Positions 48,601 to 60,635 of a DNA stretch of 64,000 nt are shown here, one piece after another. Location: positions 64,001 to 128,000 of the forward strand of contig CAZCME010000009.1 of assembly GCA_964499705.1 (NCBI GenBank), written 5' to 3'. How positions within the stretch are numbered: the stretch's first letter is position 1; the number at the start of each line of letters is the position of its first letter. The notes beneath the pieces were generated by a model. The model saw only the letters and a program-made list of their open reading frames with translations, did not search any database and was not told the DNA's origin. A program made the translations under genes and the position numbers. The stretch comes from an uncultured bacterium. Lineage in GTDB: Bacteria; UBA8481.

Positions 48601-49624
48601 GACGATCCCCTCGCTTGACGGGCTGCAGATGGCGGTGGCGATCGCCGACTCCGTCTCGGGAACCGGCAGCCTCACCGATTCGGTGGTCGTCCTCGCGGGA
48701 GAGTCGGCGGTCAACTACTACACCAGGGTCGAAGCGGCGCAGCTGTTCTTCTCGGTGAGGCTGCTGTCGGACACGTTCTTCCCGCTCGTGCGGCTCGCGG
48801 CCGCAGGCGAGTCGGTTCCTAACGTGATTTCGGGGAGGAAGGATTCCACGGGTACGTGGGGCGTACTTTCGATTCCCGACGACCACTACGATACGTCCGG
48901 GTATCGCGTTCTCGTGGAACCGTACACGGATTTCGCCTCCGAGACGGCCGCGATCGCGGCCCTCATCACGACGGCGAATTCCCGGGTCTCGTCGATACCG
49001 GGACGGGCGCACATGGCCGTGGAAGTGCGGGCGGAACAACAGTTCACCATCCGCGATCTGGGATCTGGACTATTCGTGCACGATCTCGACACATCGGTGG
49101 TTCTTACCATTTTTTACCCGGACGCGGACAATAACGGGATAGTGGACGGAACGGGCGTCGACGAGAGAACGCTCCGGATGCACTACCTCGACGAGATTCT
49201 CGGAGTCTGGGTCGTGATTTCACGCTCCACGGTCGACGCGGCCCGGAATCTCGTCAGCGCCTCCGCCGGCCATCTCACTGTCTTCACGCTCATTAGCGTC
49301 TCCGCTGCCGCCGACGCTGAGCGGATCATGATTTATCCCAATCCCTTTCGCCCGAACGATGGAAGCGCGGACAACGGCCGCGAGTACGTCTCCGGCGATC
49401 TGACCACCGGCATCCTGATGGATAATGTTCCGGGAGGATCGAAGATCCGCATCTACACGAGCTCGGGCGAGAAGGTGATGGAGCGTGTCTCGTCCGCCAG
49501 CGGAACTTACCAATGGGATGTTCGCAACGACCGGGGGGATCCGGTGGCGTCCGGACAATACATCGTCATCGTGGAGGCGCCGAACAAGACGCGGCTCATC
49601 GAGAAGATCACGGTGATCCGATGA
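39629..49624 (+). CDS. giant (~3330 aa) secreted protein: 3x (beta-helix + Fn3) modules, 13x 118-aa repeats, C-terminal T9SS/FlgD-like domain
   Basis: Signal peptide ..SALSHADA/A; NosD/CASH-type GxYLxxSxNN rungs; C-terminus IYPNPFRP..IRIYTSSGEKV..WDVRNDRGDPVASGQYIV..KITVIR; start could be ATG 39647. Confidence 0.9.
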   Translation: MIPLVFMRFLSAKVRHSRHKRNARRRRGDEARPACLFRFLIIGLFFCLSSALSHADAAVWYLNDTSTAGDSFTSAVGDSTNSGLAPDSPKRSLDNIESLIGAGDTVFLDSGIFQTLDTFTFAAGGVFLIGVDSVSSIVEFPDTTLAGARAIYASGLSGLVIRDIRVRRGHTGIWFRNVDSSVIERVHADTNEQNGFFLTNGSDSNRISNALITRSGGAGLYFNNASNNLVAGNRLSANSGPGMHIISSSNDTFTDNAVEFTSGYGIYLLSSSNNALTSNLCSNNVSFGYYLLSADNNRVTTCTAANNGSNGFYLLSSSSDTLVSNSSTGNAGIGYLLSGAHYHLLDSNLAASNTQQGFFLTLSDNNLFFRNTASNNVSQAFNLASSKSNRFQSNTADSNGSWGFLLSGTSDADTFFKNNWIPSTTAAYRESGVLNNTARRYDFTRNWWRTGDSGMIRSAIRGTGRDSITYYPFRLGLLDTAIAADTVAPRAPDTAAVLVIDTTTLFISWSRVTLNEEPSPFTVNLAGYKLYRSFSSDTTNWGLRATFGIATDTFLDTGLTPFSTYYYRVTSFDSAAPENQSFFSDSIPSGTPVADTLGPNAWYVNDVSTIGDFYTSAAGSAANNGLSITSPKQLLNQVEALLTAGDTIFVDAGTFSEPDTLTIGVPGVFIIGVDSGSSIVDFNETSDSGARAIHASGVTGLTIRKLRVRRGLHGLWFQDVDSSSVSQVRADGCGSHGFLVENGSAANEISASSAFTNTGSGFSIRNATGNTIGASTASGNTSAGFLLASCTGNLMIHNTTSNNLSHGFRLDSTFANILAANRVDSNVAYGFYIDGAARSDSFRKNVWIDSATAATADSGVFNNTTERFDFTRTWWGSGDSGLVRNNLQGPGRDSIVYMPMRLGTIDLTPSADTVSPRAPDTVAVAVVDTGTLRVSWSVVIADDEPDPFATGLAGYRVYRSLTFDTTLWVQVAQVASSVDSYADAGLTMDSTYFYRVTAFDGSAIENQSFFSDSVIGNRPTVDTSGANIWYVNDASLAGDIYTTAGGSPLNNGVLPSTPKSTLNDLESLLSPGDTVLLDSGVYLEPDSFSILVDSITIIGVDSTRSIIDFNDTTAAGARSIFATGRGNLSLREIMVRRGLHGIRFNNVDSSSLLRVRSEAHGQEGYRLENGSDFNSITSCAATGAGGAGFRLDSSHGNAIATSSSARNMGYGFHLSSADRNVISSSAADSNASWGFYLDGTSSSDTIRKNVWIGSTDPAMAESAVFNNTSNRHDFTRNWWGTTDSGRIRSRIGPVPGGGDSVSYIPFRLGVVDTIPGADTTAPRAPDTLAVANLTETRILLSWSNVASLEEANGGALGLAGYRIYRSATPDTTLWVLRGETTAIANTFQDSGLAPGVAVYYRVTAFDNTAPENQSYFSDSITQGLTSLLATPGSGAFPVSVRIGDSISCVMTDTDENQSGILQETVTVTVMNNRTGETERIVLREQGANVYTFGGNDTVGVTNASGEQASLSGRLFLLAGDSVSIRYVDKSDPSDSVLSANFSAYHESIASTGMIPTSAVIGDSFAAIISDSDQDFSGLIVETVTVMIRNNRTGETESVVYRENGAGTGHFGGNDTLAVTLDAAYASSGDGRIFAIAGDSLRIQYVDPTDPNDTFSTSAVTAVHDSGASIGAFPATARIGDSISARIIDSDQNRNGFLQETVSARVTNNRTGETETLVLRENGANGGYFGGNDTVPVESDATYSAAGDGRIFVVAGDTISILYIDAGDATDSVLSAPISMYIESGAATGSFPGTGKVGDSVTAVIRDSDQNFSGVRIETVAVTVTNTRTGETEELSLSENGANSGYFGGNDTMPLTLDTTYTGSGNGRLLVLAGDSITIRYADPSDSTDSVLSGNIPVLQESGVSIGFFPASVRIGDSLTCLIGDSDQNFSGLAIETVSVRATNNRTGETELMTLSENGANSGYFGTGESIALTGDAGFAASGDGRLFALAGETITMRYIDPTDAADIAQNGAITAFHDSGGATAVFPASGRIGDSLSAIVRDTDQNLRGFTVETVSVTVTNQRTGETEALGLTENGANAGYFGGNDTMSLTGDATFAAPGDGRLFVLAGDSMTIRYIDSSDPADSTASAFIMAYHETMTSLGIFPASAKIGDSLTAYIRDSDQNFLGLFRETVTVTLTNNRSGETETLVLRETTANGGYFGGNDTILLTLDASFGTSGDGRLSVLAGDTISILYRDPTDSADTAASSPARAFHDTVFAAGVFPASLRIGDSVSCVILDTDQEFDAFAMETVAVTATNGRTGETEIFILREIGSRSGYFGGNDTLAVTLDATFAGSGNGALWALAGDTVIIQYRDPTDTRDSATSGSIQVFHDSVLSSASFPPFASIGDSLTCIVRDSDQNLRGLAVDSVTVIVTNQRTGEVELLVLAENGANAGYFGGGSYLPLSIFFGFGSSGDTILFALPSDTITIRYVDPTDPSDSIVSGLISGAIDTSASAGVFPPAARIGDSLTAFIRDSDQNFSAYASETITVTANNGRTGEYETIVLSENGANGGYFGGQDTLPVSGDATFGPSADGRIFVLAGDTIVIRYIDPNNGSDSIASNPIRAHHDSVLATATFPASIRIGDSFSCRILDTDQNGSGVTVETLSLTATNRRTQETEILVLRENGANAGYFGGNDSLAAIGDAAFAASGDGRLFVLAGDTISLRYVDPTDAADVVFSDIFKAYHDSTPCAGVFPTTTFREDSMTAIVRDTDKNIRGVVRDTVTVAVVNERTGETEPLVLRENLANSGYFGGTETLSVTTDGAHAASSSGRLFVLAGDTITIRYIDPTDVVDSCVSGSVLVTVAAQTSSLIVEATVLRNETIAVTVLDADANRSGIMVETVTVLFRNMQTGETEPVTLVETSANAGGFQGYLATTTGKIDSLPASGRMYARVLDTITLTFTDADDTSDISTGIVSVRTNYSASAQSMQVKADRIGADTYRLFFIPLGPSGETIPSLDGLQMAVAIADSVSGTGSLTDSVVVLAGESAVNYYTRVEAAQLFFSVRLLSDTFFPLVRLAAAGESVPNVISGRKDSTGTWGVLSIPDDHYDTSGYRVLVEPYTDFASETAAIAALITTANSRVSSIPGRAHMAVEVRAEQQFTIRDLGSGLFVHDLDTSVVLTIFYPDADNNGIVDGTGVDERTLRMHYLDEILGVWVVISRSTVDAARNLVSASAGHLTVFTLISVSAAADAERIMIYPNPFRPNDGSADNGREYVSGDLTTGILMDNVPGGSKIRIYTSSGEKVMERVSSASGTYQWDVRNDRGDPVASGQYIVIVEAPNKTRLIEKITVIR
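43930..48500 (+). repeat. 13 tandem 354-nt (118 aa) intragenic repeats; boundaries approximate
   Basis: IGDS..A.I.DSDQN..G...ETV..TN.RTGETE.L.L.ENGAN.GYFGGNDT recurring every 354 nt from about 43950 to 48200. Confidence 0.88.
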
Positions 49625-50565
49625 CGGAAAGTCCGCGGGGCGGCAATTTCGGATCAAGCGCATTGCTGAGGCAGATCGCGATCTGCGTCGGATTGCTCAT
49701 GAGCGTTCAAGCCGCGCGAGGTGACGGGTCCGGAGGGACGGCCGCCGCCGATTTCCTTCGCCTCGAAATTGGCGCGGCGTCGACCGCGCAAGGCGGCGCC
49801 TTCGCAGGGCGCTCCGGCGGCGTCGAGGTCTTCGCCTACAATCCCGCCGGCCTCGCGCGCGCGGAGCGGCATGAAATCACATTTCAGCACACCAGCGCTC
49901 TCCTGGATATCCGGCAGGAATACCTCGCCGGCGTGATGCGCATGAGCCGTTGGACCGCGGCCGGATCCCTGTCGTATCATGCCGGAGGAGAACAGATTCG
50001 AAGAACGATCTCCAATCCCTCCGGCGCCGGCCTTCCCGGCTTTCACAACGATGCCCTCGCCGTTTCGCTCGGACTCGCCACGGCCTTCGGTGACGCTTTT
50101 TCCGTGGGTGGAACGGTGAAGATCTTCAAGGAGCAACTGGATACCGCGAAACGGAACGGCTTCGCTCTCGACCTCGGATTGCATTATCTCTTCGCGAACG
50201 GAGCGTACGAAGCGGGAGCCGTCATTCGCAATATCGGGCCGCAGGTGAAGTTCGATCGCGCGGGCGAGGATCTGCCTCTGGAACTGGCCCTGGGTGCAAG
50301 CGCGCGGTTTCTCAACGACCGGCTCCGACTCTCCGGAGAACTCGACATGGCGCGTGCCCAGGATATCCGCGGCAAGGCCGGCATCGAATATCGCGTGATC
50401 GATTTTCTCGTTCTTCGAGCGGGATACAACTCCCGCATTGAGCTTGGCAGCGGCGTCTCCGCCGGACTCGGCATTCCCATCGGCAATCTCCTCTTCGACT
50501 ACGCCTGGGTGGATCATGGACTGGCCGGAGACGCGCATCGCGCGGCTCTCACGGTTGGATTTTGA
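49621..50565 (+). CDS. PorV/PorQ-family outer-membrane beta-barrel protein
   Basis: TAAADFLRLEIGAASTAQGGA, YNPAGLA, FALDLGLHY, GAVIRNIGP, LRAGY, FDYAWVDHGLAGDAHRAALTVGF; ATGA-coupled to the giant gene. Confidence 0.85.
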   Translation: MTESPRGGNFGSSALLRQIAICVGLLMSVQAARGDGSGGTAAADFLRLEIGAASTAQGGAFAGRSGGVEVFAYNPAGLARAERHEITFQHTSALLDIRQEYLAGVMRMSRWTAAGSLSYHAGGEQIRRTISNPSGAGLPGFHNDALAVSLGLATAFGDAFSVGGTVKIFKEQLDTAKRNGFALDLGLHYLFANGAYEAGAVIRNIGPQVKFDRAGEDLPLELALGASARFLNDRLRLSGELDMARAQDIRGKAGIEYRVIDFLVLRAGYNSRIELGSGVSAGLGIPIGNLLFDYAWVDHGLAGDAHRAALTVGF

Positions 50566-50761: not shown

Positions 50762-50825
50762 TCGCACCTGATTTACGCCCTGACAGATAAGGGCGGGCAG
50801 ATAAGAAAGATCATAGGAGAGACTT

Positions 50826-51764
50826 TTGCGCTTCGCTTCCACACGAAGGGGCGAGACGCGTGCGCCATCACAATACTCTACGTGGCACTGCATACGTCTG
50901 CTTACATATTTGGTGATACTTGCCGTTTCCGCGGATGCGCGCGAAACGACGCACCGCGCCGATGGCGGCAGCATCGACGCTTTCACGGGTTTGCTCGGGT
51001 CGGGAGGCTGGATCGCTTCCGGACGATCCGTCACTCCGGATGCCATCGCCGATCTCTACGCGGGCCCTTCCGCGATTTCCGGCGCGGAGGGAACGACGCT
51101 CCTCACCTCCTACGGCGAACCCTATCGCCGGATCGACGGCTTCAACCTCGGATCCATTTCGCTCGTCACCGACAAATGGAAACTCGCTCGCATCGGCGTC
51201 TCGTATGACAGGCTCCAGATCGGAGGACTCCGAGAAGCGACCTCCGCCGGAGCACTGACCGGGCGGACATTCGACGTTTCGTATGATGCCGCACGGATTT
51301 CCGCGGCGAGGCGCTTCGGCCGGTTCGGTGCTGGCGCGTCGCTCAATTATTTCGGCGTCTCGATCCAGAATTCCTCCACATCACGTTTCGGTCTCGATCT
51401 CGGAGGCGACGTCGAGTTCGTCAATGCAAGGGTGCTTCTGAATGTTCGGAACATCTCCGGTGACCGCAACGACGCGGATCGACTGCCGATCACCGGCGAG
51501 ATCCGCGGCGAGTGGTCGCCGTACGCCCAGATGCATCTCGGCGTCGGAGGCACATGGCGAGAAGATGCCGTCGGCGAGTACAACGTCGGGATCCAGTACG
51601 ACATCTTCAAGATGATCTCGCTTCTTGCGGGATACCAGAGCGGACCGAAGGAATGGTCGGCAGGCGCAATCGGGCGATATCAGAAGATTAATTTGCAGTA
51701 TGCGATCTCTGCTCACCGCGAATTGGACTTCTCCCACACGATCTCGCTCGGAGTGAGCTTCTAA
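50826..51764 (+). CDS. divergent PorV/PorQ-like beta-barrel protein
   Basis: FGLDLGG, LNVRNI, LLAGY, LQYAISAHRELDFSHTISLGVSF C-terminus parallels the other PorV-like genes; start (TTG) uncertain. Confidence 0.65.
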   Translation: MRFASTRRGETRAPSQYSTWHCIRLLTYLVILAVSADARETTHRADGGSIDAFTGLLGSGGWIASGRSVTPDAIADLYAGPSAISGAEGTTLLTSYGEPYRRIDGFNLGSISLVTDKWKLARIGVSYDRLQIGGLREATSAGALTGRTFDVSYDAARISAARRFGRFGAGASLNYFGVSIQNSSTSRFGLDLGGDVEFVNARVLLNVRNISGDRNDADRLPITGEIRGEWSPYAQMHLGVGGTWREDAVGEYNVGIQYDIFKMISLLAGYQSGPKEWSAGAIGRYQKINLQYAISAHRELDFSHTISLGVSF

Positions 51765-54001
51765 TGAAGAAAACTCAATATTTAATATGTAATTTGAAAT
51801 ATGTAATTTGTAATGTGGTTACCCAATGCAAATTACAAATTACATATTTCAAATTACATATTAAATATTCTCTTTTCTTCGCTCTTCTCCTTCTCCGCCT
51901 CTCGCCTTCGTCCGCCGACGTCATCGACATCCGTGTCGACGAGTTCAAGTCGGATCGATCCGTCGCGATCACCGAGCTTTCGAACGGAAAGACCGTCGTT
52001 GGCATCCTCCGTCGCGAAATCGAGCGGACTATTTCCGCCGACACTGGGTTCGTGCTCTCGACGACCGCGAAGCTTTCGCTGAACGGGACGATCCGCGAGC
52101 TCACGATCACGGACCGGCGCGTCAACGCGCAAGGGTCGCCGCTGGAGCGACTGGTGAAGATACGCGTCGACTTCGCGGCGCTCGACGAGCTGACAGGGCG
52201 GGACGCGTCGGAACGGAACAACGTAATCGAGGAGCTGTCGTATTACACGGACACGTATTCGCTCGAGCAGGGCCTGACGGACAGGGAGGCGATAGAGGAG
52301 AAGTTGCTCATCGCGCTGGCGCGGCGAATCGTGAAGGAACTGAATGTCGACTACGCGAAACTGCCGACAACAGCCTCGGCGAAGATCGAATTGTCGCCCG
52401 AAGAGAAGAGCGAACTGGACGCGATCGGAGCGGTGCCCGCCGAAGGCGGCGAGACGAAGCCGCCGCACAAGTGGTTCTCGTGGAACCTCGGATTCGAGAA
52501 TGAGGCGATCACGGTCGTCGAGGGAACGTTGACGGCGGCAGGTCAGCCGAAGCGGACGACAAACAGGTTTTCGCAGAACACAACGTTGACGCTCGAGCCG
52601 ATCACGTGGGGAAACTCCGAGTTGAAAGGAGTGGCGATCTCGAAGTATCGACCGGAGGATCTGCGCGAGCTGACCCTGCAGAGAGGCGAACTCGAATACT
52701 CGATCAATCCGAACAACATCCTGAAGGCCGGAACTGTCACCGGATCGATCTCGAAATACATCTTCGACCAGACGCTGGCCGGGGCGACGTTCGAGCGGAA
52801 GATGGAGCTTGGGAAGACGAAGAACACGCTCTTTCTTATGGGCGGTCAGGATTTCCGCGCGGACGGTCTCGGCGACCTCCCGAGGGTCAACTACGGCGGA
52901 TTCTGGAAGACGGTCTTCGGCGAGTGGGGCGAGATCCAGATCTCGGCCGACGCGACCCGCGACAAGGAGACGTTCCTGAACACGTCCAATGTCCTGACAA
53001 ACGTCGACAATCGCCTCTTCGGCGCGATCGGGAAGCTGAAGACGCCGTTCCAGACGGAGATCACGGTCGACGTGAACCGATCCGAGCACAAAGAGCTGCG
53101 CGTGCCGGACACGACATTCGTCCGCGGCGACCTCCTCGACGCGAAGCTGACGCAGAAGATCAAGGATCTGACGTTCCGCGCCGAGTATTACAACGCGGAT
53201 CAACTTTTTCGAATAGTCTACGGCAGCGCGACGACGGACCGCGAGAAGTCGATGGCGGCGGTCGAACTCCCGGGCAAGTTCCTCTGGCTCGACTACACCG
53301 TGAAAGGCGACTGGACACGGACGAACAAGATCGCGGCGCGGACGCTTGTCGAGCAGCTCGGAACGGCGGGGCTGTCGCTTTCGTCCAAGCCGTTCGCGGA
53401 ATCGAGCAACTGGTTCCTGAAGAATCTTGCGTTCACCGACGACCTTTCTCTGCGCCGCACCTATGACGATGTTGTCGTTGCGGGGACGGCGCCGGGATCC
53501 AATCGTCAGAATTACAAGGTGACGTCGGGGGTCTCGAATACGCTCTGGGAGATCTGGAAGATCTCGGCGAGCTTCGACGTGGAGCGGGAGAAAGACCGCC
53601 TATTGAACACGCTACTGCAGACCGAGGAGTGGAAAGTCGAGAACACGCTGACGAAGAGCTTCTTCGATGACTGGCTGAAGGCCGAGCTGAAGGCGAACTA
53701 CCGCGCGAAGGATGGAGGAACGCAGCAGGATCGGTTCTCGACGTTCGGTGGAACTCTGTCGCACGAAGGGGAGAGGCTTTCTGCGCGGTTCGATTATCTC
53801 CGGGATCTGAAGCGCGGAACCGTGAAGGCGCAGAACACGACGAAGGATCGGTTCACGCTGGATCTGGGATATTCGAGCGAAAACGGACCGTTCAAGAACA
53901 CGATCTCGGTGCGGAGCGATTACGAGATCAACCAGTTCGACGCGAAGGCGAGCGACTATGACCGGTTGACGACGACGATCGGGCTGAAGGTGATCTTCTG
54001 A
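51764..54001 (+). CDS. secreted / outer-membrane protein, probable large beta-barrel, with a palindrome-encoded insert in its signal peptide
   Basis: TAATG coupling to upstream gene; h-region SLFFALLLLRLSPSSA; alternating beta-strand pattern and terminal aromatic (..TTIGLKVIF). Confidence 0.75.
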   Translation: MKKTQYLICNLKYVICNVVTQCKLQITYFKLHIKYSLFFALLLLRLSPSSADVIDIRVDEFKSDRSVAITELSNGKTVVGILRREIERTISADTGFVLSTTAKLSLNGTIRELTITDRRVNAQGSPLERLVKIRVDFAALDELTGRDASERNNVIEELSYYTDTYSLEQGLTDREAIEEKLLIALARRIVKELNVDYAKLPTTASAKIELSPEEKSELDAIGAVPAEGGETKPPHKWFSWNLGFENEAITVVEGTLTAAGQPKRTTNRFSQNTTLTLEPITWGNSELKGVAISKYRPEDLRELTLQRGELEYSINPNNILKAGTVTGSISKYIFDQTLAGATFERKMELGKTKNTLFLMGGQDFRADGLGDLPRVNYGGFWKTVFGEWGEIQISADATRDKETFLNTSNVLTNVDNRLFGAIGKLKTPFQTEITVDVNRSEHKELRVPDTTFVRGDLLDAKLTQKIKDLTFRAEYYNADQLFRIVYGSATTDREKSMAAVELPGKFLWLDYTVKGDWTRTNKIAARTLVEQLGTAGLSLSSKPFAESSNWFLKNLAFTDDLSLRRTYDDVVVAGTAPGSNRQNYKVTSGVSNTLWEIWKISASFDVEREKDRLLNTLLQTEEWKVENTLTKSFFDDWLKAELKANYRAKDGGTQQDRFSTFGGTLSHEGERLSARFDYLRDLKRGTVKAQNTTKDRFTLDLGYSSENGPFKNTISVRSDYEINQFDAKASDYDRLTTTIGLKVIF
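51777..51869. mobile_element. AT-rich 7-mer palindromic element, copy 1 (empty)
   Basis: Perfect 38-bp inverted repeat 51777-51814 / 51832-51869 with a 17-nt loop; 93 nt = 31 codons, in frame in the host N-terminus; mobility is inferred. Confidence 0.85.
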
Positions 54002-57000
54002 TGGAGCGAAGAGAATTTGTAATATGTAATTTGAAATATGAAATTTGTAATTTGTTGCGCGGCGGAGCATCAAAATTACAAATTACAAATTACAAATTAC
54101 ATATTAAATATTCTCTTTTCCTTCTCGCCTTCTTCATATTCGCTTCGCCGTCGCCTGCGTTCGCGGCCGACTTTTATGTGAATGATACGTCAACGGTCGG
54201 AGATTCGTTCTCATCTGCGGTCGGATCGGATGCGGGCACGGGCGCGAAAGCGTCGCCATTTCTCCGGATCGACTCCGCGATCGCGGCGGCGGCGGTCGGC
54301 GACACGATTCTGATCGACGCCGGGACATATTACGAGGGCGACACGATCACCATCACAAAGAATTCCCTGACGTTCGTCGGCGTCGATTCGACGCTGACGA
54401 TCATCGACTTTCTCTCGACATTATTCAGCGAGAATCGATGTTGGTTCGCGAGCGGGCGGCAGAACATCGAAATACGAAACCTCCGGCTTACGAACGGCCA
54501 CCGCGGCATCGAATGGAGTTCGACGGATACCGGAATGATTCGCGGAGTCCAGTTCGACGCGTTCCAGCATGGAATCCAGCTGACGTCGTGCAGGAATATC
54601 ACGATGAGAAATAATCGGAATTCCGGATTGTCGGGCCAAGGATATCGTCTGCTGACATCAAGCGGAAACTCGATTCTGTACAATCTCGTGGAAAACAACG
54701 TCGGCCGAGGTATCAACCTCAATGGTTCGGATACGAATATTGTGGTCGGAAATATCGTCCGTAGTCTGACGGCGTCGGGCATTGCGCTGGAAGCTTCCAG
54801 CACCAACAATCTCGTCAGCAACAATGTCAGTAAGGACATCGGATCCGGCGGCGCCTGCTTTTTCGTCACTTCGTCGAGCAACAATACGTTGGCGCAGAAC
54901 ACGGCCGATTCTGCGTCCGCAGGCTACTGCTTCGACATCGCCGGCACGTCGTCGGGCAACATGTTTCGCAGAAATGTTGTCCTGCCGTCGCCGGCGCGGC
55001 CGGACTCGGGTGTCCGCAACAGCACGGTGAACCAGGTCGACTTCGCGCGAAACTGGTTTGCGCGCGTGGACTCGGTGACCATTGGACAGATGATCGTTAA
55101 TACCGGTGGCGCCGGAGTCACGTACATCCCTTTCCGCCTCGGGATCGTTGATACCGCTGTCGGAGCGGACTCGATCGCGCCTCGCGCGCCGGATACCGTT
55201 TCGGTCTCGACGGTGGGCGATACGCGACGGGTCACTTGGGCCGCGTCCACGCTCGACGAGGAAGGCGGAGCGCAGACGGGCCTTGCGGGGTACAAGATCT
55301 ATCGCGCCGTGGCGGCCGACTCCAGCTTCTGGACGCTTATGGGGCAGGTCGGCGCGGGCACCTTGACGTTCAACGACTCATCCGTCGCCGCGACGGACAC
55401 GCGCTATTATCGCGTCACGGCGATCGACACGGCGACGGCATATCCGAACGAAGCCTTCTTCTCTGACTCCGTGGCGGCCAGCGTTGCCGTTGTCGCCAAT
55501 GTCGAGACGCCGCGGATTCGATTCCTCGCGACGACGCCGATCGACACGCGTTCCGCGTCGTTTTCGATCCGCGTCTCGATCGACAGCGCGACATCGGGCG
55601 ACTCGGTCCGGCTCTCCGTGAACGGTGTGCAGATTGAGACGCAGATGATGACTGCCGCCGCCGAGACGCGAACGTTCACCTTTGTCTGCGGAACGTATTT
55701 GAACACCGGCGTCATCTTCATCACGCGCCAGTCGACAGGCGACACCTTCGCGGATTCGAACCTCGTTCGCCTCGACACCGTTCCGCCGTCCGGTTCATCG
55801 ATCTCGATCTCCGACACGATCGCGTCGCGGCCGACGTTCCGGTGGACGGCCGCGACCGACTCAAACACGATTACTGCGTACAAGCTCATACTTCGATCCC
55901 TCGCGGACTCTTCCGTACTTCAAGCCTTCGACACTACCGCGCTCCAAGCCACGTGCACAACGCCTCTCGCGGTCGGCTTGTACCGCGTCGATCTCTCCTG
56001 CACGGACGCGGTCGGAAACACGAATTCGAATATGGATTCGAGGTCGTTCAATATTGTTCCGGACACGTCGCGCGTGCGAATCCAGGCGACGACGCCGGTT
56101 GATACGAGAGCGGCGACCTTCGCTCTGCGCGCCGCGATCGACAGCGCAGTCGCGGGAGACACGGTCCGGCTCATTGTCAACAATGCGGTGATTGAAACGC
56201 AGATCATGACCGGGACGAACGAGACGAGAACGTTCACGGTTCTCGGCTTGATCGTGTTGAACGACACGATTGCCGTTCAGGTGACGCGCCATGTCGGCGG
56301 CGCGGCGTTCTCGGATTCGATACTTGTTCGGCTCGATACAGCCGGTCCCGCCGGCTCGGTTCTTGCGATCTCCGACACCATTCGTACGACGCCGACCATT
56401 CGGTGGACTGCTGCGACTGACTCGAACGCCGTGAGCGGCTATCGTCTGACGCTCCGGTCCTTGGCGGACTCATCTGTACTACTTGTCTTCGACACGACGG
56501 CGCTACAGGCATCCTGCACCGTCGCGCTCGCTGTTGGCCTGTACCGCGCTGACCTTGCCTGCACCGATGGGCTGGGGAATACGAATTCGAACATCGACTC
56601 CCGTTCCTTCAGCGTCCTGCCCGATACGTCGCGAGTCCGGATCCAGGCGACGTCGCCTCTGGACACGAACGTCACGACATTCGCCTTTCGCGCGGCGATT
56701 GACTCGGCCGTTGCGGGCGACACAGTGCGACTCATCGTCAACAACGTGAACATCGAGACGCAGATCATGACCGGGACGAACGAGACGCGGACGTTCACTG
56801 TGGTCGGACTGATCGTCTATAACGACACCGTCGCGATCCAGGTGACGCGCCACATCGGCGGTTCCTCCTTCTCCGATTCGCTTCTCGTCCGCCTCGACAC
56901 GGTTCCGCCGACCGGATCGGTCATTGCGATCTCCGACACCTCCGCGCGCCTTCCGAGGATTCCGTGGTCGGCCGCGACGGATTCCGCCGGCGTTGCGCGA

Positions 57001-58815
57001 TACCGTCTTACGATCCGGTCGCTCTCGGACTCCGCGACGTTTCTCTCATACGAGACGACCGGCATCTCGGCGCTTGTCGACTCGGCGCTCGTCCTCGCCG
57101 TCTACCGCGCCGATCTCATCTGCACCGACGTCCTCGGAAACGTGAGCGGCGTCATCGACTCGAAGGTCTTCACGGTGACGGCCGACACGCCGACGTCGTT
57201 CACGTTGACCGACACGCAGACCTACATCGTCTCGAAGAACTCCTTCGCCGCCGACTCGTCGCACTTCATTGTGAAGGACACGAACGGAACGGGCGTCCCG
57301 AACTATCTCCCCGTCATCGCGATCGTCGCGCGTCCGGCCGGAGCGACGGGGGAAACGTATTCCGCCACGAAGACCGACTCGAACGGCCGATGCACAGTCA
57401 TCCTCAAGGCGGGCGACAAGGCCGGCGTCTATATCCTGAAGGTTGCCGTCCCCGGTGTCGGGACGATCTACCTCGCCTACGCGACGGACGAATACGACCT
57501 GCCGGCGACGACGTGGCGGATGATCACGCCGAACCGGACGCCGACGAACTCTGCAACCTCGTCCGCCATCTCGCTTTCGCCGCTCCGGATTCTCCAGTGG
57601 AATCCGCTCGCGGAAAACTCCGCGCTAAATCTCCTCTACGAGATTCCCTCGACCATCACGACCGGAAGAGGTTACTTCGTCTACCACACGTCCGCGGTGA
57701 GCTTCACCGTCTCCGGCACGATGCTCACCACCGACACGACGGACATCGCCCTGAAGACAGGTTGGAACATGATTGGGCCGCCCTACGCGTACCCGACGCG
57801 ATACAACGCCGCGCGCGTCCTCACGTCGGGCGGCTCCAATATTTCGCTCTCCGACGCCGAGGCGCAGGGGATACTCGTCAACAAGATCTACTGGTACACG
57901 AACAACGCCTACCAGTTCGGTCCGACCACGGCGATCACCGACCCGATTCTCTCGCCGTGGAACGGCGTCTGGATCTATGCCGCCGCGAACGCGACGCTCC
58001 GACTCTCGCCGTTCTTCTACTTTGGCGAGACGTCGACAACGACACTCGCGACGGCTCAGGCCGCGGGAGACCCGCAGGACTGGAAGATCAGGATCACGAC
58101 CTCGACGTCGGGCGGCGCGCAGACAACGAGCTTCCTCGGCGTCTCTCCGACGGCGACGGAGAACAAGGACTTCGCGCTCGATCTAGAGAATCCGCCTCCT
58201 GTTTCCGGCGGCATGGCGACGGGGCTCGGATCATCCGGTCTCTTCGCGCAGGATCTCCGCGCGCCGTTCACGACGGCGAACCTCTGGCAATTCGCCGTGA
58301 CGCCTACGGCGTCCGACACCGAGGTCACACTCGACTTCGCGGATCTGGCGAATCTTCCGACCGATTTCGTCGTGCGCCTTGTGGATTTGGGGACGAACGC
58401 TATCGTCGACGTGAAGGCCGCGCCGTCGTATCGCTATTCCGCTTCGGGCGCATCGGCGCGGAGTTTCCGGATCGCGGCGGGCACGGAGGCCGCCGTCCGA
58501 TCCATTCTCGCGCAACAGCTCGATCAGTCGCAGACGTTTGCCTACCCCAATCCCGGACCTGCGGCGGATGGGAATGTGCGGTTCAAATACAACGTCCCGG
58601 CGGGAGGGCAGTTGCGCATTCGCGTTTACGATTTGTCGGGGCGTCGGGTCATCGACCGGTATATCGATCTCAATACGTTCCCGACGGAATACGCGTGGAA
58701 CTGCCGGAACGAGCGTGGAGAACCGGTTTCGACGGGCGTGTATATCTACATTCTCGATATCGGCAACTCGACCGGGAATCGGCGATTCACGGACAAGATG
58801 GCGATTGTTCGATGA
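54001..58815 (+). CDS. large (1604 aa) secreted protein: beta-helix + Fn3 module, 3 internal repeats, C-terminal T9SS/FlgD-like domain
   Basis: TGATG coupling; FYVNDTSTVGDSFSSAVG module shared with the 39629 gene; C-terminus AYPNP..IRVYDLSGRRV..WNCRNERGEPVSTGVYIY..KMAIVR. Confidence 0.9.
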   Translation: MERREFVICNLKYEICNLLRGGASKLQITNYKLHIKYSLFLLAFFIFASPSPAFAADFYVNDTSTVGDSFSSAVGSDAGTGAKASPFLRIDSAIAAAAVGDTILIDAGTYYEGDTITITKNSLTFVGVDSTLTIIDFLSTLFSENRCWFASGRQNIEIRNLRLTNGHRGIEWSSTDTGMIRGVQFDAFQHGIQLTSCRNITMRNNRNSGLSGQGYRLLTSSGNSILYNLVENNVGRGINLNGSDTNIVVGNIVRSLTASGIALEASSTNNLVSNNVSKDIGSGGACFFVTSSSNNTLAQNTADSASAGYCFDIAGTSSGNMFRRNVVLPSPARPDSGVRNSTVNQVDFARNWFARVDSVTIGQMIVNTGGAGVTYIPFRLGIVDTAVGADSIAPRAPDTVSVSTVGDTRRVTWAASTLDEEGGAQTGLAGYKIYRAVAADSSFWTLMGQVGAGTLTFNDSSVAATDTRYYRVTAIDTATAYPNEAFFSDSVAASVAVVANVETPRIRFLATTPIDTRSASFSIRVSIDSATSGDSVRLSVNGVQIETQMMTAAAETRTFTFVCGTYLNTGVIFITRQSTGDTFADSNLVRLDTVPPSGSSISISDTIASRPTFRWTAATDSNTITAYKLILRSLADSSVLQAFDTTALQATCTTPLAVGLYRVDLSCTDAVGNTNSNMDSRSFNIVPDTSRVRIQATTPVDTRAATFALRAAIDSAVAGDTVRLIVNNAVIETQIMTGTNETRTFTVLGLIVLNDTIAVQVTRHVGGAAFSDSILVRLDTAGPAGSVLAISDTIRTTPTIRWTAATDSNAVSGYRLTLRSLADSSVLLVFDTTALQASCTVALAVGLYRADLACTDGLGNTNSNIDSRSFSVLPDTSRVRIQATSPLDTNVTTFAFRAAIDSAVAGDTVRLIVNNVNIETQIMTGTNETRTFTVVGLIVYNDTVAIQVTRHIGGSSFSDSLLVRLDTVPPTGSVIAISDTSARLPRIPWSAATDSAGVARYRLTIRSLSDSATFLSYETTGISALVDSALVLAVYRADLICTDVLGNVSGVIDSKVFTVTADTPTSFTLTDTQTYIVSKNSFAADSSHFIVKDTNGTGVPNYLPVIAIVARPAGATGETYSATKTDSNGRCTVILKAGDKAGVYILKVAVPGVGTIYLAYATDEYDLPATTWRMITPNRTPTNSATSSAISLSPLRILQWNPLAENSALNLLYEIPSTITTGRGYFVYHTSAVSFTVSGTMLTTDTTDIALKTGWNMIGPPYAYPTRYNAARVLTSGGSNISLSDAEAQGILVNKIYWYTNNAYQFGPTTAITDPILSPWNGVWIYAAANATLRLSPFFYFGETSTTTLATAQAAGDPQDWKIRITTSTSGGAQTTSFLGVSPTATENKDFALDLENPPPVSGGMATGLGSSGLFAQDLRAPFTTANLWQFAVTPTASDTEVTLDFADLANLPTDFVVRLVDLGTNAIVDVKAAPSYRYSASGASARSFRIAAGTEAAVRSILAQQLDQSQTFAYPNPGPAADGNVRFKYNVPAGGQLRIRVYDLSGRRVIDRYIDLNTFPTEYAWNCRNERGEPVSTGVYIYILDIGNSTGNRRFTDKMAIVR
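54009..54117. mobile_element. AT-rich 7-mer palindromic element, copy 2 (empty)
   Basis: 45-bp inverted repeat 54009-54053 / 54073-54117 with 5 mismatches and a 19-nt loop; in frame in the host N-terminus; mobility is inferred. Confidence 0.85.
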
Positions 58816-60635
58816 GAAAAGAATATTTAATATGTAATTTGAAATTTGTAATTTGTAATGTGCTCGCCACGCTCGCTTCTTGCCGTCATTTCCTCAATAT
58901 TACAAATTACAAATTACAAATTAGATATTACATATCATTTCTTTCCCCGAAGCGTACGAATTGTCGCTCCCATAATCCGACAAAGTTCATCGGTCTCTTT
59001 GAGCAAATCAGCCGCGTCCGCAAGACCGGCGCGCTTGAGAATCTTCAGCCATACCGCGCATTCCTGAAGCTCTTTTCGAACAATGGCGATCTTATGAGCA
59101 AAGTCCGCCTTGCTCTCGGCTCCACGCGCTTCGGCATAATTGGCGGCGGGAGAGGAGGACGAGCGGAGCAGTTGTCCCATGACATGTCGGCACTCCGGCC
59201 GTTTCGCCAGTCGCTCGCAGAATTTCAAAACATCCGCCGCATAGTCGATCAGTCGATCTTCCAATTCATCCGAAGTCATTCACAATCACCTCTCACCCCA
59301 CCAAATTACAAATTACAAATTACAAATTACATATTATACATTCTTCTCGCACTCCTCCCATGCACTGCCGCCGCCGCCCCTCTTTCCTCTCCGGCGACAG
59401 ACGATGACGCCGTTCTCCTTCAGCAGGCCGGATCGATGACCGACGGAAGCACACTCGGAGCCACCAGAAAGCCGGTCAGGATTCTCGGGACGATCAATCC
59501 TCCGGTGTCTGCCGTCGAGTGGCCGGGCAAGACCGGAGCGCCGACGACGGCCGTCACGTCGCTTCCCTTCGTCAAGGGCGCCGTGATGACGTCGTCCACG
59601 ACGACACCGGAGATCACATGGCCCGATTATCCCGGGGCGGTGTCATACAGGGTCTATATCGGTCGCAGCAATTTCGCGTCTTACAACCTCGTGCTCGCGC
59701 AGGTGGTGACGTCCGGAAGAAAGCTTCAGACGGCCACGGCTCAATTCACCAAGCCGCTCGTAAATGGGGTTCGCTACGTCTTCACCGTCTTTCCTCGAAA
59801 CGCGTTGGGCGCGTCGATGCTCAAATCCACGACCGGTCTTTCCGCATTCTTCAGCGTCGTTCTGCCAATCGCGGATACCGGAACCGCGGGGGAAATCGCC
59901 CTGACGAAATCCATGATCAACGATGTCTCTTCTTCAACTCTCGGCGACGTCGCGTGGTGGAACCGTGAAAACACGCCGCTCGGGACGATCACATGGAAAG
60001 GAATACTCACCTCATCGTCCACCGAGAAGGTCACCTCGGCGTCTTTGATTTTTAACAGCACCGAGTCCGTCGCGCTTACGCTTGACGCGTCCGGCGGCTT
60101 CACGCACGAGCGCTTGATGAAGGTCGATGCGATCTTCACCCCAATGATCCGCGTCGTGACGTCGAACGGCCGCACCGTCGATTTTTCTCCTGGCCCGAAG
60201 ACGCTCAACTACCGCCACATGACGCAGACGGAGGAGATCCGCGAAGTGCTCACGAAGCTCGCCGACGCATACCGCGCGAACGATCGCGTCTCGCTCTTGA
60301 AGCTTATCGACAGGGATTACATCTCCTCCGCGACGGGCTTCAGGGATTATCAGGAATTGGACAACTCGCTCCGCGATCACTTCAACGTCACGACGACGTC
60401 GACCTGCCGATGGAATTCGGAGGACATCAGGATCATCACGCCTGCAAAGCGCCTCGAAGTCACGTTCCAGTGGCGGAGAAATATCAACTACTCGACGCTC
60501 AACACGACGCGCGACTATCAGGCGACCGCGAGGCTTGATATTCGGAAGATCGACGGAGTCTGGCTCATTCACGAGGATTTTGGCCGGACGATCTTCGCGA
60601 CCGACCTCGGGCCCGTGCCCGCGCCGCCGCAATGA
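58812..60635 (+). CDS. secreted hypothetical protein whose signal-peptide region is interrupted in frame by the filled palindromic element
   Basis: ATGA-coupled start MRKEYLICNLKFVICN; frame open across the antisense gene to h-region ILYILLALLPCTAAA at about 59330; downstream Fn3-like and NTF2-like regions. Confidence 0.7.
   Translation: MRKEYLICNLKFVICNVLATLASCRHFLNITNYKLQIRYYISFLSPKRTNCRSHNPTKFIGLFEQISRVRKTGALENLQPYRAFLKLFSNNGDLMSKVRLALGSTRFGIIGGGRGGRAEQLSHDMSALRPFRQSLAEFQNIRRIVDQSIFQFIRSHSQSPLTPPNYKLQITNYILYILLALLPCTAAAAPLSSPATDDDAVLLQQAGSMTDGSTLGATRKPVRILGTINPPVSAVEWPGKTGAPTTAVTSLPFVKGAVMTSSTTTPEITWPDYPGAVSYRVYIGRSNFASYNLVLAQVVTSGRKLQTATAQFTKPLVNGVRYVFTVFPRNALGASMLKSTTGLSAFFSVVLPIADTGTAGEIALTKSMINDVSSSTLGDVAWWNRENTPLGTITWKGILTSSSTEKVTSASLIFNSTESVALTLDASGGFTHERLMKVDAIFTPMIRVVTSNGRTVDFSPGPKTLNYRHMTQTEEIREVLTKLADAYRANDRVSLLKLIDRDYISSATGFRDYQELDNSLRDHFNVTTTSTCRWNSEDIRIITPAKRLEVTFQWRRNINYSTLNTTRDYQATARLDIRKIDGVWLIHEDFGRTIFATDLGPVPAPPQ
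58819..59345. mobile_element. AT-rich 7-mer palindromic element, copy 3 (filled with four-helix-bundle gene)
   Basis: Left arm 58819-58859 is complementary to both 58899-58935 (34/37) and 59305-59345 (38/41); the two right arms flank the antisense gene as direct repeats; mobility is inferred. Confidence 0.85.
58935..59279 (-). CDS. four helix bundle protein (23S rRNA intervening-sequence protein / bAvd-like family)
   Basis: LEDRLIDYA..V..FC..L, QLLRSSSSPAANYAEARGAESKADFAHKIAIVRKELQECAVWLKIL; SD GAGGTGA 6 nt upstream of the ATG. Confidence 0.92.
   Translation of the reverse strand: MTSDELEDRLIDYAADVLKFCERLAKRPECRHVMGQLLRSSSSPAANYAEARGAESKADFAHKIAIVRKELQECAVWLKILKRAGLADAADLLKETDELCRIMGATIRTLRGKK

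Follow-up and report, generated by a model that had tools for sequence, protein, structure and literature searches.

We describe three AT-rich hairpins, built of tandem heptamer units, in a 64,000-nucleotide window of the genome G000 (the window is G000:C9:64001-128000, where C-numbers denote contigs of G000). G000 comprises 4.67 Mb in 45 contigs with 61% G+C, and its phylum is represented in our collection by five species genomes, namely G000 and four relatives. All three hairpins lie at junctions between co-oriented genes whose stop and start codons overlap (TAATG, TGATG and ATGA), and translation through them is well supported by the sequence. Our preferred reading, to which we give a probability of roughly 0.6, is that they are palindromic repeats similar to MITEs (miniature transposable elements with inverted repeats), tolerated or co-opted in the permissive n-region of signal peptides and possibly enforcing translational coupling.

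The hairpins span positions 51766-51880 (copy 1), 54009-54117 (copy 2) and 58823-58935 (copy 3), start 2-11 nt after the overlapping ATG, and have G+C-rich loops of 17-39 nt. TGTAATT units make up the left arms and AATTACA units the right arms. An open frame runs from each overlapping ATG across the hairpin, and in copies 1 and 2 it then enters a signal-peptide-like segment directly (MKKTQYLICNLKYVICNVVTQCKLQITYFKLHIKYSLFFALLLLRLSPSSA followed by DV in copy 1, MERREFVICNLKYEICNLLRGGASKLQITNYKLHIKYSLFLLAFFIFASPSPAFA followed by AD in copy 2). The start codons and arms are as follows.

51764..51766, + strand: ATG of a 745-aa open reading frame (ORF), overlapping the TAA (51762-51764) of an upstream 312-aa ORF (TAATG, 51762-51766); GGAGTGA upstream
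51766..51814, + strand: left arm of copy 1, TGTAATT units; AAA at 51797-51799 in place of an in-frame TAA; encodes KKTQYLICNLKYVICN
51832..51880, + strand: right arm of copy 1, AATTACA units; TTTC at 51847-51850 pairs with GAAA
54001..54003, + strand: ATG of a 1604-aa ORF, overlapping the TGA of the 745-aa ORF (TGATG, 53999-54003); AAGGTGAT upstream
54009..54053, + strand: left arm of copy 2; needed AAA at 54034-54036, then a second GAAA (codon GAA, 54040-54042) at which no stop is avoided
54073..54117, + strand: right arm of copy 2, a pure (AAATTAC) array matching 28 of 28 beside the loop, then the signal-peptide core SLFLLAFFIFASPSPAFA
58812..58814, + strand: ATG at copy 3, overlapping the TGA of the 1604-aa ORF (ATGA, 58812-58815); frame open to 60635
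58823..58859, + strand: left arm of copy 3; AAA at 58842-58844
58899..58935, + strand: first right arm of copy 3
59302..59340, + strand: second right arm of copy 3, (CAAATTA)x5, in frame with the ATG at 58812; the signal-peptide-like ILLALLPCTAAAAP of the downstream ORF follows directly

In the frame of the host genes, a pure (TGTAATT)n array reads TGT AAT TTG TAA. A preliminary description of this DNA had claimed that the left arms break the repeat exactly where it would create an in-frame stop, and we confirmed this: all three read TGT AAT TTG AAA, and the array ends (with GTG or TTG, and then the loop) before the next TAA. The codons concerned are as follows.

Copy 1: ATG(51764) AAG AAA ACT CAA TAT TTA ATA TGT AAT TTG AAA(51797-51799) TAT GTA ATT TGT AAT GTG
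Copy 2: ATG(54001) ... TGT AAT TTG AAA(54034-54036) TAT GAA ATT TGT AAT TTG TTG
Copy 3: ATG(58812) ... TGT AAT TTG AAA(58842-58844) TTT GTA ATT TGT AAT GTG

The structure of the stems also agrees with that description. In copy 1, TTTC stands opposite GAAA and compensates the change, giving a perfect 38-bp core with 46 of 49 pairs matched over the full stem; TCTCTTTTCTTC, in its outer right arm, encodes the first residues of the hydrophobic core (SLFF) and pairs with GAAGAAAA beside the ATG. Copies 2 and 3 have mismatches at 5 of 45 and 3 of 37 pairs respectively, in both cases including an A opposite A at the edited unit. The predicted RNA folding energies of copies 1-3 are -52.9, -45.5 and -38.8 kcal/mol (z-scores of -14.6, -8.1 and -7.4 relative to mononucleotide shuffles). 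No Rfam family matched at its gathering score, the only matches being eukaryotic microRNA precursor models with at most 34 bits where at least 84 are needed. We rejected an intrinsic terminator as an identity for the hairpins: there are five terminator-like sites in 51500-59600, none of them at a hairpin, and the stems are AT-rich and have no T tail.

A fuzzy search found elements of the TGTAATT family at 12 places on 7 contigs of G000, comprising 8 full hairpins and 4 single-arm fragments. The elements are 80-115 nt long, with arms of 33-49 nt that are 86-97% complementary. Six of the full hairpins are of the translated type: the three in the window, two on the minus strand of contig C14 (C14:29813 and C14:32057, referred to as C14a and C14b), and C22:79174. 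The C14 copies lie at the same two junctions of a paralogous operon whose proteins are 58% identical to those of the window operon. In all six, the ATG lies over the upstream stop and the frame is open into a signal peptide. Summed over the six copies, frames 0, 1 and 2 of the region from the ATG to the right arm contain 0, 20 and 17 stop triplets respectively. The random expectation for none of 37 stops falling in frame is (2/3)^37, or about 3e-7, a figure that overstates independence because the copies are related. TTG AAA replaces TTG TAA in 6 of 6 translated-type copies, always at a spacing of 21 or 24 nt between the ATG and the edited unit. Since the six share one frame and one edited unit, they do not represent six independent events, which suggests that a single edited subfamily lies behind them. 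A pure TGTAATT left arm has a TAA once per 21 nt in every frame, so that only a subfamily in which the in-frame TAA has become AAA, and whose arm ends before the next one, could survive translation. On this pattern, the stop-free left arm is shown to reflect purifying selection on the host ORF.

In the two untranslated full copies the TAA is retained and TTGAAAT is absent. One of them (C11:59092) lies between two genes, with the downstream ATG past its right arm, and the other (C6:152515) is upstream of a gene with a GAGGAG and an ATG of its own. The expectation that GAAA would be missing from untranslated copies held, as regards an internal TTGAAAT, for every full hairpin considered, namely these two, eight in metagenome contigs and nine in genomes of other organisms (two sets with at least one locus in common, see below), and failed for one single-arm fragment in G000. 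The related proposal that the T-to-A change tracks the reading frame stood in part: the in-frame TAA is edited in 6 of 6 copies, but 3 of the 9 GAAA units (in copy 2, C14a and C22) are beyond need, at a phase where the pure repeat reads GTA and the change is Val to Glu, so GAAA is not confined to would-be stops.

Probable initiation at the overlapping start codons

The 1604-aa protein consists of beta-helix repeats with a C-terminal type A sorting domain of the type IX secretion system (T9SS; TIGR04183, 32.6 bits versus a cut-off of 23), and another ORF of the same operon matches the PorV/PorQ family (NF033709, 133 bits versus a cut-off of 90). These two matches indicate that the region contains genes for T9SS cargo and outer-membrane proteins, so closely packed that stops and starts overlap. 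The PorV/PorQ-like gene provides a junction for comparison:

49621..50565, + strand: PorV/PorQ-family gene, starting at an ATGA overlap without a hairpin

Most overlapping ATGs of the translated copies have a Shine-Dalgarno-like motif (GGTGA or GGAG) located 4-11 nt upstream. Including hairpins of sister families on C12 and C1, examples are GAAGGTGATCTTCTGATG (copy 2, C12 and C14a) and GGTGATCCGATGA (C22 and C1:69772). In the sequences that we inspected, nothing resembling a Shine-Dalgarno motif precedes the ATT in the right arm of the translated copies, and none of these copies has a canonical start codon past the right arm.

G000 has 23 PorV/PorQ-like paralogs. Seventeen of them are without a hairpin, and in these the same upstream frame encodes a short signal peptide of the ordinary kind; about 10 of the 17 visibly start at an ATG over the stop (e.g. 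..GDPM..). In the other six, an in-frame hairpin separates the ATG from the hydrophobic core. Only one of the six hairpins (at C22) belongs to the TGTAATT family; four are of a family with CACGAA units and one is of an AAATCC family. In the CACGAA copies, NHKDTKTRRRTKK comes from the left arm and FVLLRVFVSSWL from the right; the latter belongs to the sole hydrophobic core present, so that unless these hairpins are read the protein has no signal peptide. For example, the N-terminus is MTLFVNHKDTKTRRRTKKYYFVLLRVFVSSWLFAVASDA at C1:69772 and MRADITTKTRRHEERKMILFFSQVCLCVFVSSWLIAPAHS at C7:145383. In the CACGAA palindromes at C1:69772, C7:145383, C19:31166, C29:28856 and C12:117699, the A-rich left arm gives a Lys/Arg/Thr-rich stretch and the right arm a hydrophobic one; because the arms are complementary, a single palindrome supplies an n-region plus part of an h-region. 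CACGAA arms are stop-free in all frames and their translated copies use all three, whereas TGTAATT arms need an edit and occur in one frame only.

Among the paralogs of the 745-aa protein, the mature N-terminus after the predicted cleavage site is conserved: DVIDIRVDEF on C9, DVVDIRIDEF on C35 and IALRVDEF on C14. The claim that the hairpin is translated is supported by the contrast between 0 in-frame and 37 out-of-frame stops, by the Shine-Dalgarno-like start contexts, by the frames of the paralogs, by the hydrophobic core inside the CACGAA arm, and by this conserved N-terminus. No RNA data set was listed for positions 50800-55000 of the window.

Repeat families and turnover at gene junctions

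After removing runs of N, we searched G000 for inverted repeats in which 20 or more pairs match within 140 nt, and found 144 hairpins in at least 9 families. Their arms are mostly tandem units of 7-9 nt (e.g. C9:40353-40474). Most of the 144 contain an internal stop and lie between genes. The scan listed 13 read-through cases, a few of which appear spurious (e.g. C3:228757); this number leaves out copy 3 and C22, which were examined separately. The two largest families that we tested are expansions specific to G000: the GGGGACATTCTCCAACATT family has 111 arm matches in G000 and none in the other four genomes of the phylum, and the CACGAA arm has 38 matches in G000 versus 0-3 in each of the others. 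By exact search the TGTAATT pattern occurs in 1 of the 5 phylum genomes, and a looser search gave two matches, in an array at a contig end of G001. We examined 24 PorV-like loci of the four relatives, and in none does the N-terminal region contain an inverted repeat with a score of at least 14.

Hairpins also differ between close paralogs. The operon most similar to that in the window (83-84% protein identity) is split over two contig ends, at C35:17372-17480 and C12:117690-117812 (minus strand). Its junctions have a GGATRRGCA-type and a CGAAATAxA-type hairpin, both of period 9 and in frame from a TGATG start, and the entire signal-peptide region between the start codon and the cleavage site has been swapped. 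The presence of other families at the same two junctions of such similar operons indicates that hairpins turn over faster than the genes diverge.

TGTAATT elements share several traits with MITEs, being small and non-coding, with terminal inverted repeats and multiple dispersed copies. The sole cargo that we found in them is a gene between the two right arms of copy 3:

58935..59279, - strand: 114-aa gene, PF05635 (23S rRNA intervening-sequence protein, four-helix bundle)

All three PF05635 genes of G000 lie between inverted arms: the gene in the window, C5:106786-107143 (minus strand) and C21:27128-27475 (plus strand). The arm families around the three are all different (TGTAATT, GTTCAT/TCATTCG and GTCGCC/GACGGC respectively), and each family is also present elsewhere in G000 as short hairpins without a gene. 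These two facts suggest that the units carrying PF05635 are elements similar to intervening sequences (IVSs), and that the short hairpins are their MITE-like derivatives.

Competing explanations

In the reading that we prefer, the elements are copies of a palindromic repeat, with a (TGTAATT)n left arm, a G+C-rich loop and an (AATTACA)n right arm, which would have inserted at the 5' ends of genes for secreted and outer-membrane proteins in T9SS cargo and PorV-like operons, between the stop-overlapping start and the hydrophobic core. Ribosomes starting at the overlapping ATG would read the hairpin and so add about 35 residues to the n-region of the signal peptide, a permissive site. The hairpin itself would simply be inherited from the repeat family. 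In silico, the hairpins have folding energies of -25.6 to -52.9 kcal/mol and the stem starts at +3 of the AUG, which would leave half of the 30S binding site, the downstream half, already paired when a free subunit arrives. The stem would then block free initiation, and the downstream cistron would be translated mainly by ribosomes arriving from the upstream one. When a ribosome terminates at the overlapping stop, the first 12-15 nt of the stem are already inside its channel, which favours enforced or attenuated coupling. Our best guess is that the hairpin makes coupling strict or attenuated; both RNA-unfolding and ribosome-scanning models of translational coupling have been reviewed (PMC12548453). 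Since 17 of the 23 paralogs have no hairpin and compensation is rare, it is equally possible that the hairpin is just tolerated, without any function of its own.

Several observations weigh against this reading. The six translated copies share their frame and edited unit, and four of them are at paralogous junctions, so the 0-of-37 count is less impressive than six independent insertions would make it. The edit also occurs outside any gene: C11:27644, an intergenic left-arm fragment between convergent genes, carries TTTGAAAT. In the public annotation, the C14a protein begins at an ATG inside the left arm and not at the overlapping ATG. At copy 3, the frame must cross about 115 codons antisense to the PF05635 gene, which makes the start of the downstream gene less certain. 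A stem of 33-49 pairs right after the start codon is expected to hinder translation, and structure just downstream of the upstream stop is reported to correlate negatively with coupling efficiency (PMC12548453), so that the net effect may be lower expression of the downstream gene. As regards mobility, there is no obvious target-site duplication in the flanks that we read and no transposase partner was established, no systematic search having been made. Lastly, all six copies have an in-frame ATT just before the hydrophobic core, and four of the six have an in-frame GTG or TTG at the start of the loop.

These last codons are the basis of an improbable alternative, in which the hairpin is an untranslated intercistronic leader, the true start is the ATT (ATT AAA TAT, giving (M)KYSLFF...) or the GTG/TTG at the loop, and the open frame is inherited and not selected. 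The ATT lies 0-3 codons before the core and would give an ideal signal peptide of 19-22 residues. Moreover, in untranslated relatives the A-rich right arm abuts the downstream start: the ATG closes the arm in three loci from other organisms (L085, L110 and L132, see below), and the layout is the same at C11, C6 and C3. However, an untranslated leader leaves the 0 in-frame versus 37 out-of-frame stops unexplained. It is also at odds with the hairpin-less paralogs, which use the same ATG over the stop with a Shine-Dalgarno-like motif, a motif that the ATT does not have; ATT is a very weak start codon in the bacteria that have been studied. C14a and C14b have no in-frame ATG, GTG or TTG past the left arm, and the CACGAA hairpins, with the hydrophobic core inside the right arm, require read-through.

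A different possibility is that the hairpin is a selected RNA regulatory structure in which pairing and coding are both under selection, with compensatory evolution. The preliminary description had proposed such simultaneous selection, and we regard it as a tentative and rather doubtful idea. The TTTC opposite GAAA in copy 1, with its perfect core, is what one would expect, and C22 has one further GAAA/TTTC pair, at its unneeded unit. Hairpins occur at both junctions in three paralogous operons even though the families differ, the left arms of C9 and C14 are about 85% alike where the host proteins are only 58% identical, and the stems are still stable. Against this, only 2 of 9 GAAA units are compensated, and of the six needed changes only one is. 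The translated copies have 3-5 stem mismatches, compared to one in the intergenic C11 copy. Hairpins are absent from 17 of the 23 PorV/PorQ-like paralogs and from 24 of 24 PorV-like loci in relatives. The two largest families are specific to G000 and TGTAATT is nearly absent from the relatives; with families this young, high complementarity may reflect youth, descent, gene conversion or reinsertion, not selection. The claim of selection for base pairing is not well supported.

The hairpins might instead be contingency loci, where slippage by 7 nt in either direction shifts the frame and switches surface proteins on or off. A unit of 7 is not a multiple of 3, the arrays are in the 5' coding region of genes for secreted T9SS cargo and outer-membrane proteins, and the array in G001 is at a contig end, as is typical of variable repeats. 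We think this very unlikely, because the arrays are short (at most 5 units) and those of the left arms are interrupted. No indel of 7 nt was listed at the arrays in contigs from four DNA runs covering 51500-59500, of which few span the arrays and most end there, and neither the inverted-repeat architecture nor the sister families of period 9 would be explained. We give still less credence to a role at the DNA level, either as a promoter formed by hexamers in the T-rich arm or as an array of regulator binding sites. Short units in tandem are characteristic of protein-binding sites, by eye TTGTAA-N18-TAATTT is similar to weak -35/-10 hexamers, and all three PF05635 genes of G000 lie between such arms. 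But there are no sigma-70 promoter-like sites in 51500-59600 (shuffled sequences give 2.7), the heptamer unit gives TAnTTTG and not the Bacteroidetes-type TAnnTTTG, and a transcript starting in the loop would have no canonical start codon for the six translated genes.

There is also an unlikely, bolder version of the preferred reading, in which the palindromes would be mobile 'signal-peptide cassettes' that create, extend or swap signal peptides at T9SS cargo and PorV junctions and impose strict coupling. They might be spread or serviced by the PF05635 gene in the loop of full-length versions, which would be relatives of 23S rRNA intervening sequences. This idea comes from a complementarity in the genetic code, by which an A-rich arm gives a basic, polar n-region and its complement a hydrophobic core. 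It is seen outright in the CACGAA family (NHKDTKTRRRTKK and FVLLRVFVSSWL), and also in the outer pairs of copy 1 (MKK and SLFF).

Known systems and hairpins in other organisms

In-frame palindromic repeats are already known; what is new here is their site in the n-region of signal peptides and the edit that removes a stop. The closest parallel is with the Rickettsia palindromic elements (RPEs), several families of which are translated within the host protein (PMC10969869). The elements described here are likewise palindromic and in frame and belong to multiple families, with 6 of the 8 full copies in the open frame of a host protein. They differ in coming from another phylum, in having no sequence relation to RPEs (whose sequences were not compared), and in having arms made of tandem units of 7-9 nt. 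Their insertions cluster in the signal-peptide region after a stop-overlapping start, and the left arm needs an edit to remove a stop. MITEs, Correia, ERIC and REP-BIME elements resemble them in being small and multi-copy, with terminal inverted repeats and hairpins in mRNA, but those elements are mostly intergenic, whereas here 6 of the 8 full copies are inside ORFs. Co-transcribed MITE hairpins can be cut by RNase III or RNase E and can affect the processing and stability of operon transcripts (PMC10969869, PMC3733652). Compared to REP sequences, the stems are longer and have no GTAG or CGTC head. We set aside integron attC sites and REP/RAYT elements by anatomy alone, given the large genes and the absence of a GTTRRRY core and a GTAG head.

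Three other systems show partial similarity. Structure-dependent coupling, as in phage f1 genes VII/IX and MS2 coat/lysis, also involves co-oriented genes that overlap by -1 or -4, and the initiation region of the downstream gene is folded into a stable structure which would be opened only when a ribosome arrives (PMC12548453). In the window, unlike in those cases, the hairpin is inside the ORF past the start codon and not over the ribosome-binding site, and it belongs to a repeat family and is not locus-specific. The intervening sequences of 23S rRNA (e.g. the Coxiella IVS with S23p) are stem-forming selfish elements with a PF05635 four-helix-bundle ORF in the loop (PMC4990558); in contrast to these, the elements of G000 are located between or inside protein genes and not in rRNA, and short versions without a gene are numerous. 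PARCELs are coding DNA with dyad symmetry in membrane-targeted proteins (PMC2996958), but they are tandem protein domains of 25 residues in the bodies of ORFs, defined by protein hidden Markov models, whereas ours are single hairpins at the signal peptide; we claim no sequence similarity.

If the preferred reading is true, these hairpins show clearly that palindromic repeats can live within reading frames outside Rickettsia too, and the removal of the one in-frame stop is a visible trace of editing. The n-region past a stop-overlapping start would then be a niche where selfish hairpins persist in gene-dense operons, and N-termini of this kind would be real coding sequence and not mis-called starts, which is a warning for annotation. 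The junctions would lend themselves to constructs that test what ribosomes do with a stem of 33-49 pairs right after initiation. The poorly understood PF05635 'IVS protein' genes would also become tied to a wider class of hairpin elements.

Such heptamer hairpins have a wide distribution, being present in Acidobacteriota, Bacteroidota, Ignavibacteria, candidate-phyla-radiation (CPR) lineages and other bacteria. We scanned metagenome contigs and genomes for exact (AAATTAC)x3; each scan gave at least 120 matches, in many unrelated contigs and genomes, and we read 80 loci from each (L-numbers denote individual loci). Among the metagenome matches listed, full hairpins with the T-rich arm first occur in eight G+C-rich contigs (L068, L077, L083, L085, L089, L104, L110 and L132, of which L083 and L104 are apparently one locus), and none of the eight has an internal TTGAAAT. 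The genome locus L257 is the same as the metagenome locus L085. Among the genome matches listed, 27 of 80 loci have a second arm. The T-rich arm comes first in 9 of these 27, mostly in Terriglobales and other Acidobacteriota, and the A-rich arm comes first in the other 18, mostly in Bacteroidota and Ignavibacteria and often right after a stop codon. By eye, TTGAAAT was found inside the arm in none of the nine T-first genome loci listed, with L218 and L242 having GAAA at the arm edge. We had considered a bias towards the T-rich arm first as evidence and dropped it, because a palindrome reads identically on both strands.

In L085, L110 and L132 the upstream ORF runs into the left arm and is closed by its first in-frame TAA (CAT TTG TAA), and the downstream gene starts at the ATG that closes the right arm. 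The downstream gene is LpxA in L085 and TsaB in L110, and L132 has a close homolog of the L110 protein. In these Acidobacteriota-like loci (L110, L132, L085 and L250) the hairpin fills the intergenic space and CAT pairs with ATG, an arrangement that suits coupling by RNA unfolding. In Bacteroidota and Ignavibacteria (L240, L252, L232, L220, L222 and L225) an (AAATTAC)n ... (GTAATTT)n arrangement, often after a stop, looks like a terminator with a long stem. Some low-G+C metagenome contigs (L069, L109, L111, L119, L126 and L138) have single (AAATTAC)n arrays that seem to be in frame in housekeeping-type genes, for example ..VEKLQITNYKLQIVIVDNAS..., as identified by eye. AATTACA-like arrays also occur beside tRNA genes and their terminator hairpins in G011, an unrelated AT-rich genome (L001, L007 and L011).

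At the protein level, a profile search with the six N-termini gave 26 matches at E <= 0.001. Eleven were read, one of which was the C14a protein itself; none was an independent translated copy, and the other ten look like ORFs over tandem or hairpin repeats, several of them of a TTTGCAA type. A word-index search with the N-terminus of copy 2 (60 residues) against longer proteins gave three candidates, none of which was scored, and is weak evidence either way. In the literature, we found no description of the repeat as a DNA string or of its peptides in the main texts searched. Five public proteins (P0002, P0003, P0006, P0008 and P0016) are apparently spurious ORFs over TTTGCAA-type hairpins, with peptides AICNLQFAICNLQ and NCKLQIANCKLQI, which suggests that this hairpin type is widespread and pollutes protein databases. 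In groundwater sequencing runs, the summed contig depth rises 5-10-fold at the right-arm arrays of the window (53903-54169 and 59243-59500), where many different sequences adjoin, and this points to the same heptamer array in many other organisms of the groundwater samples.

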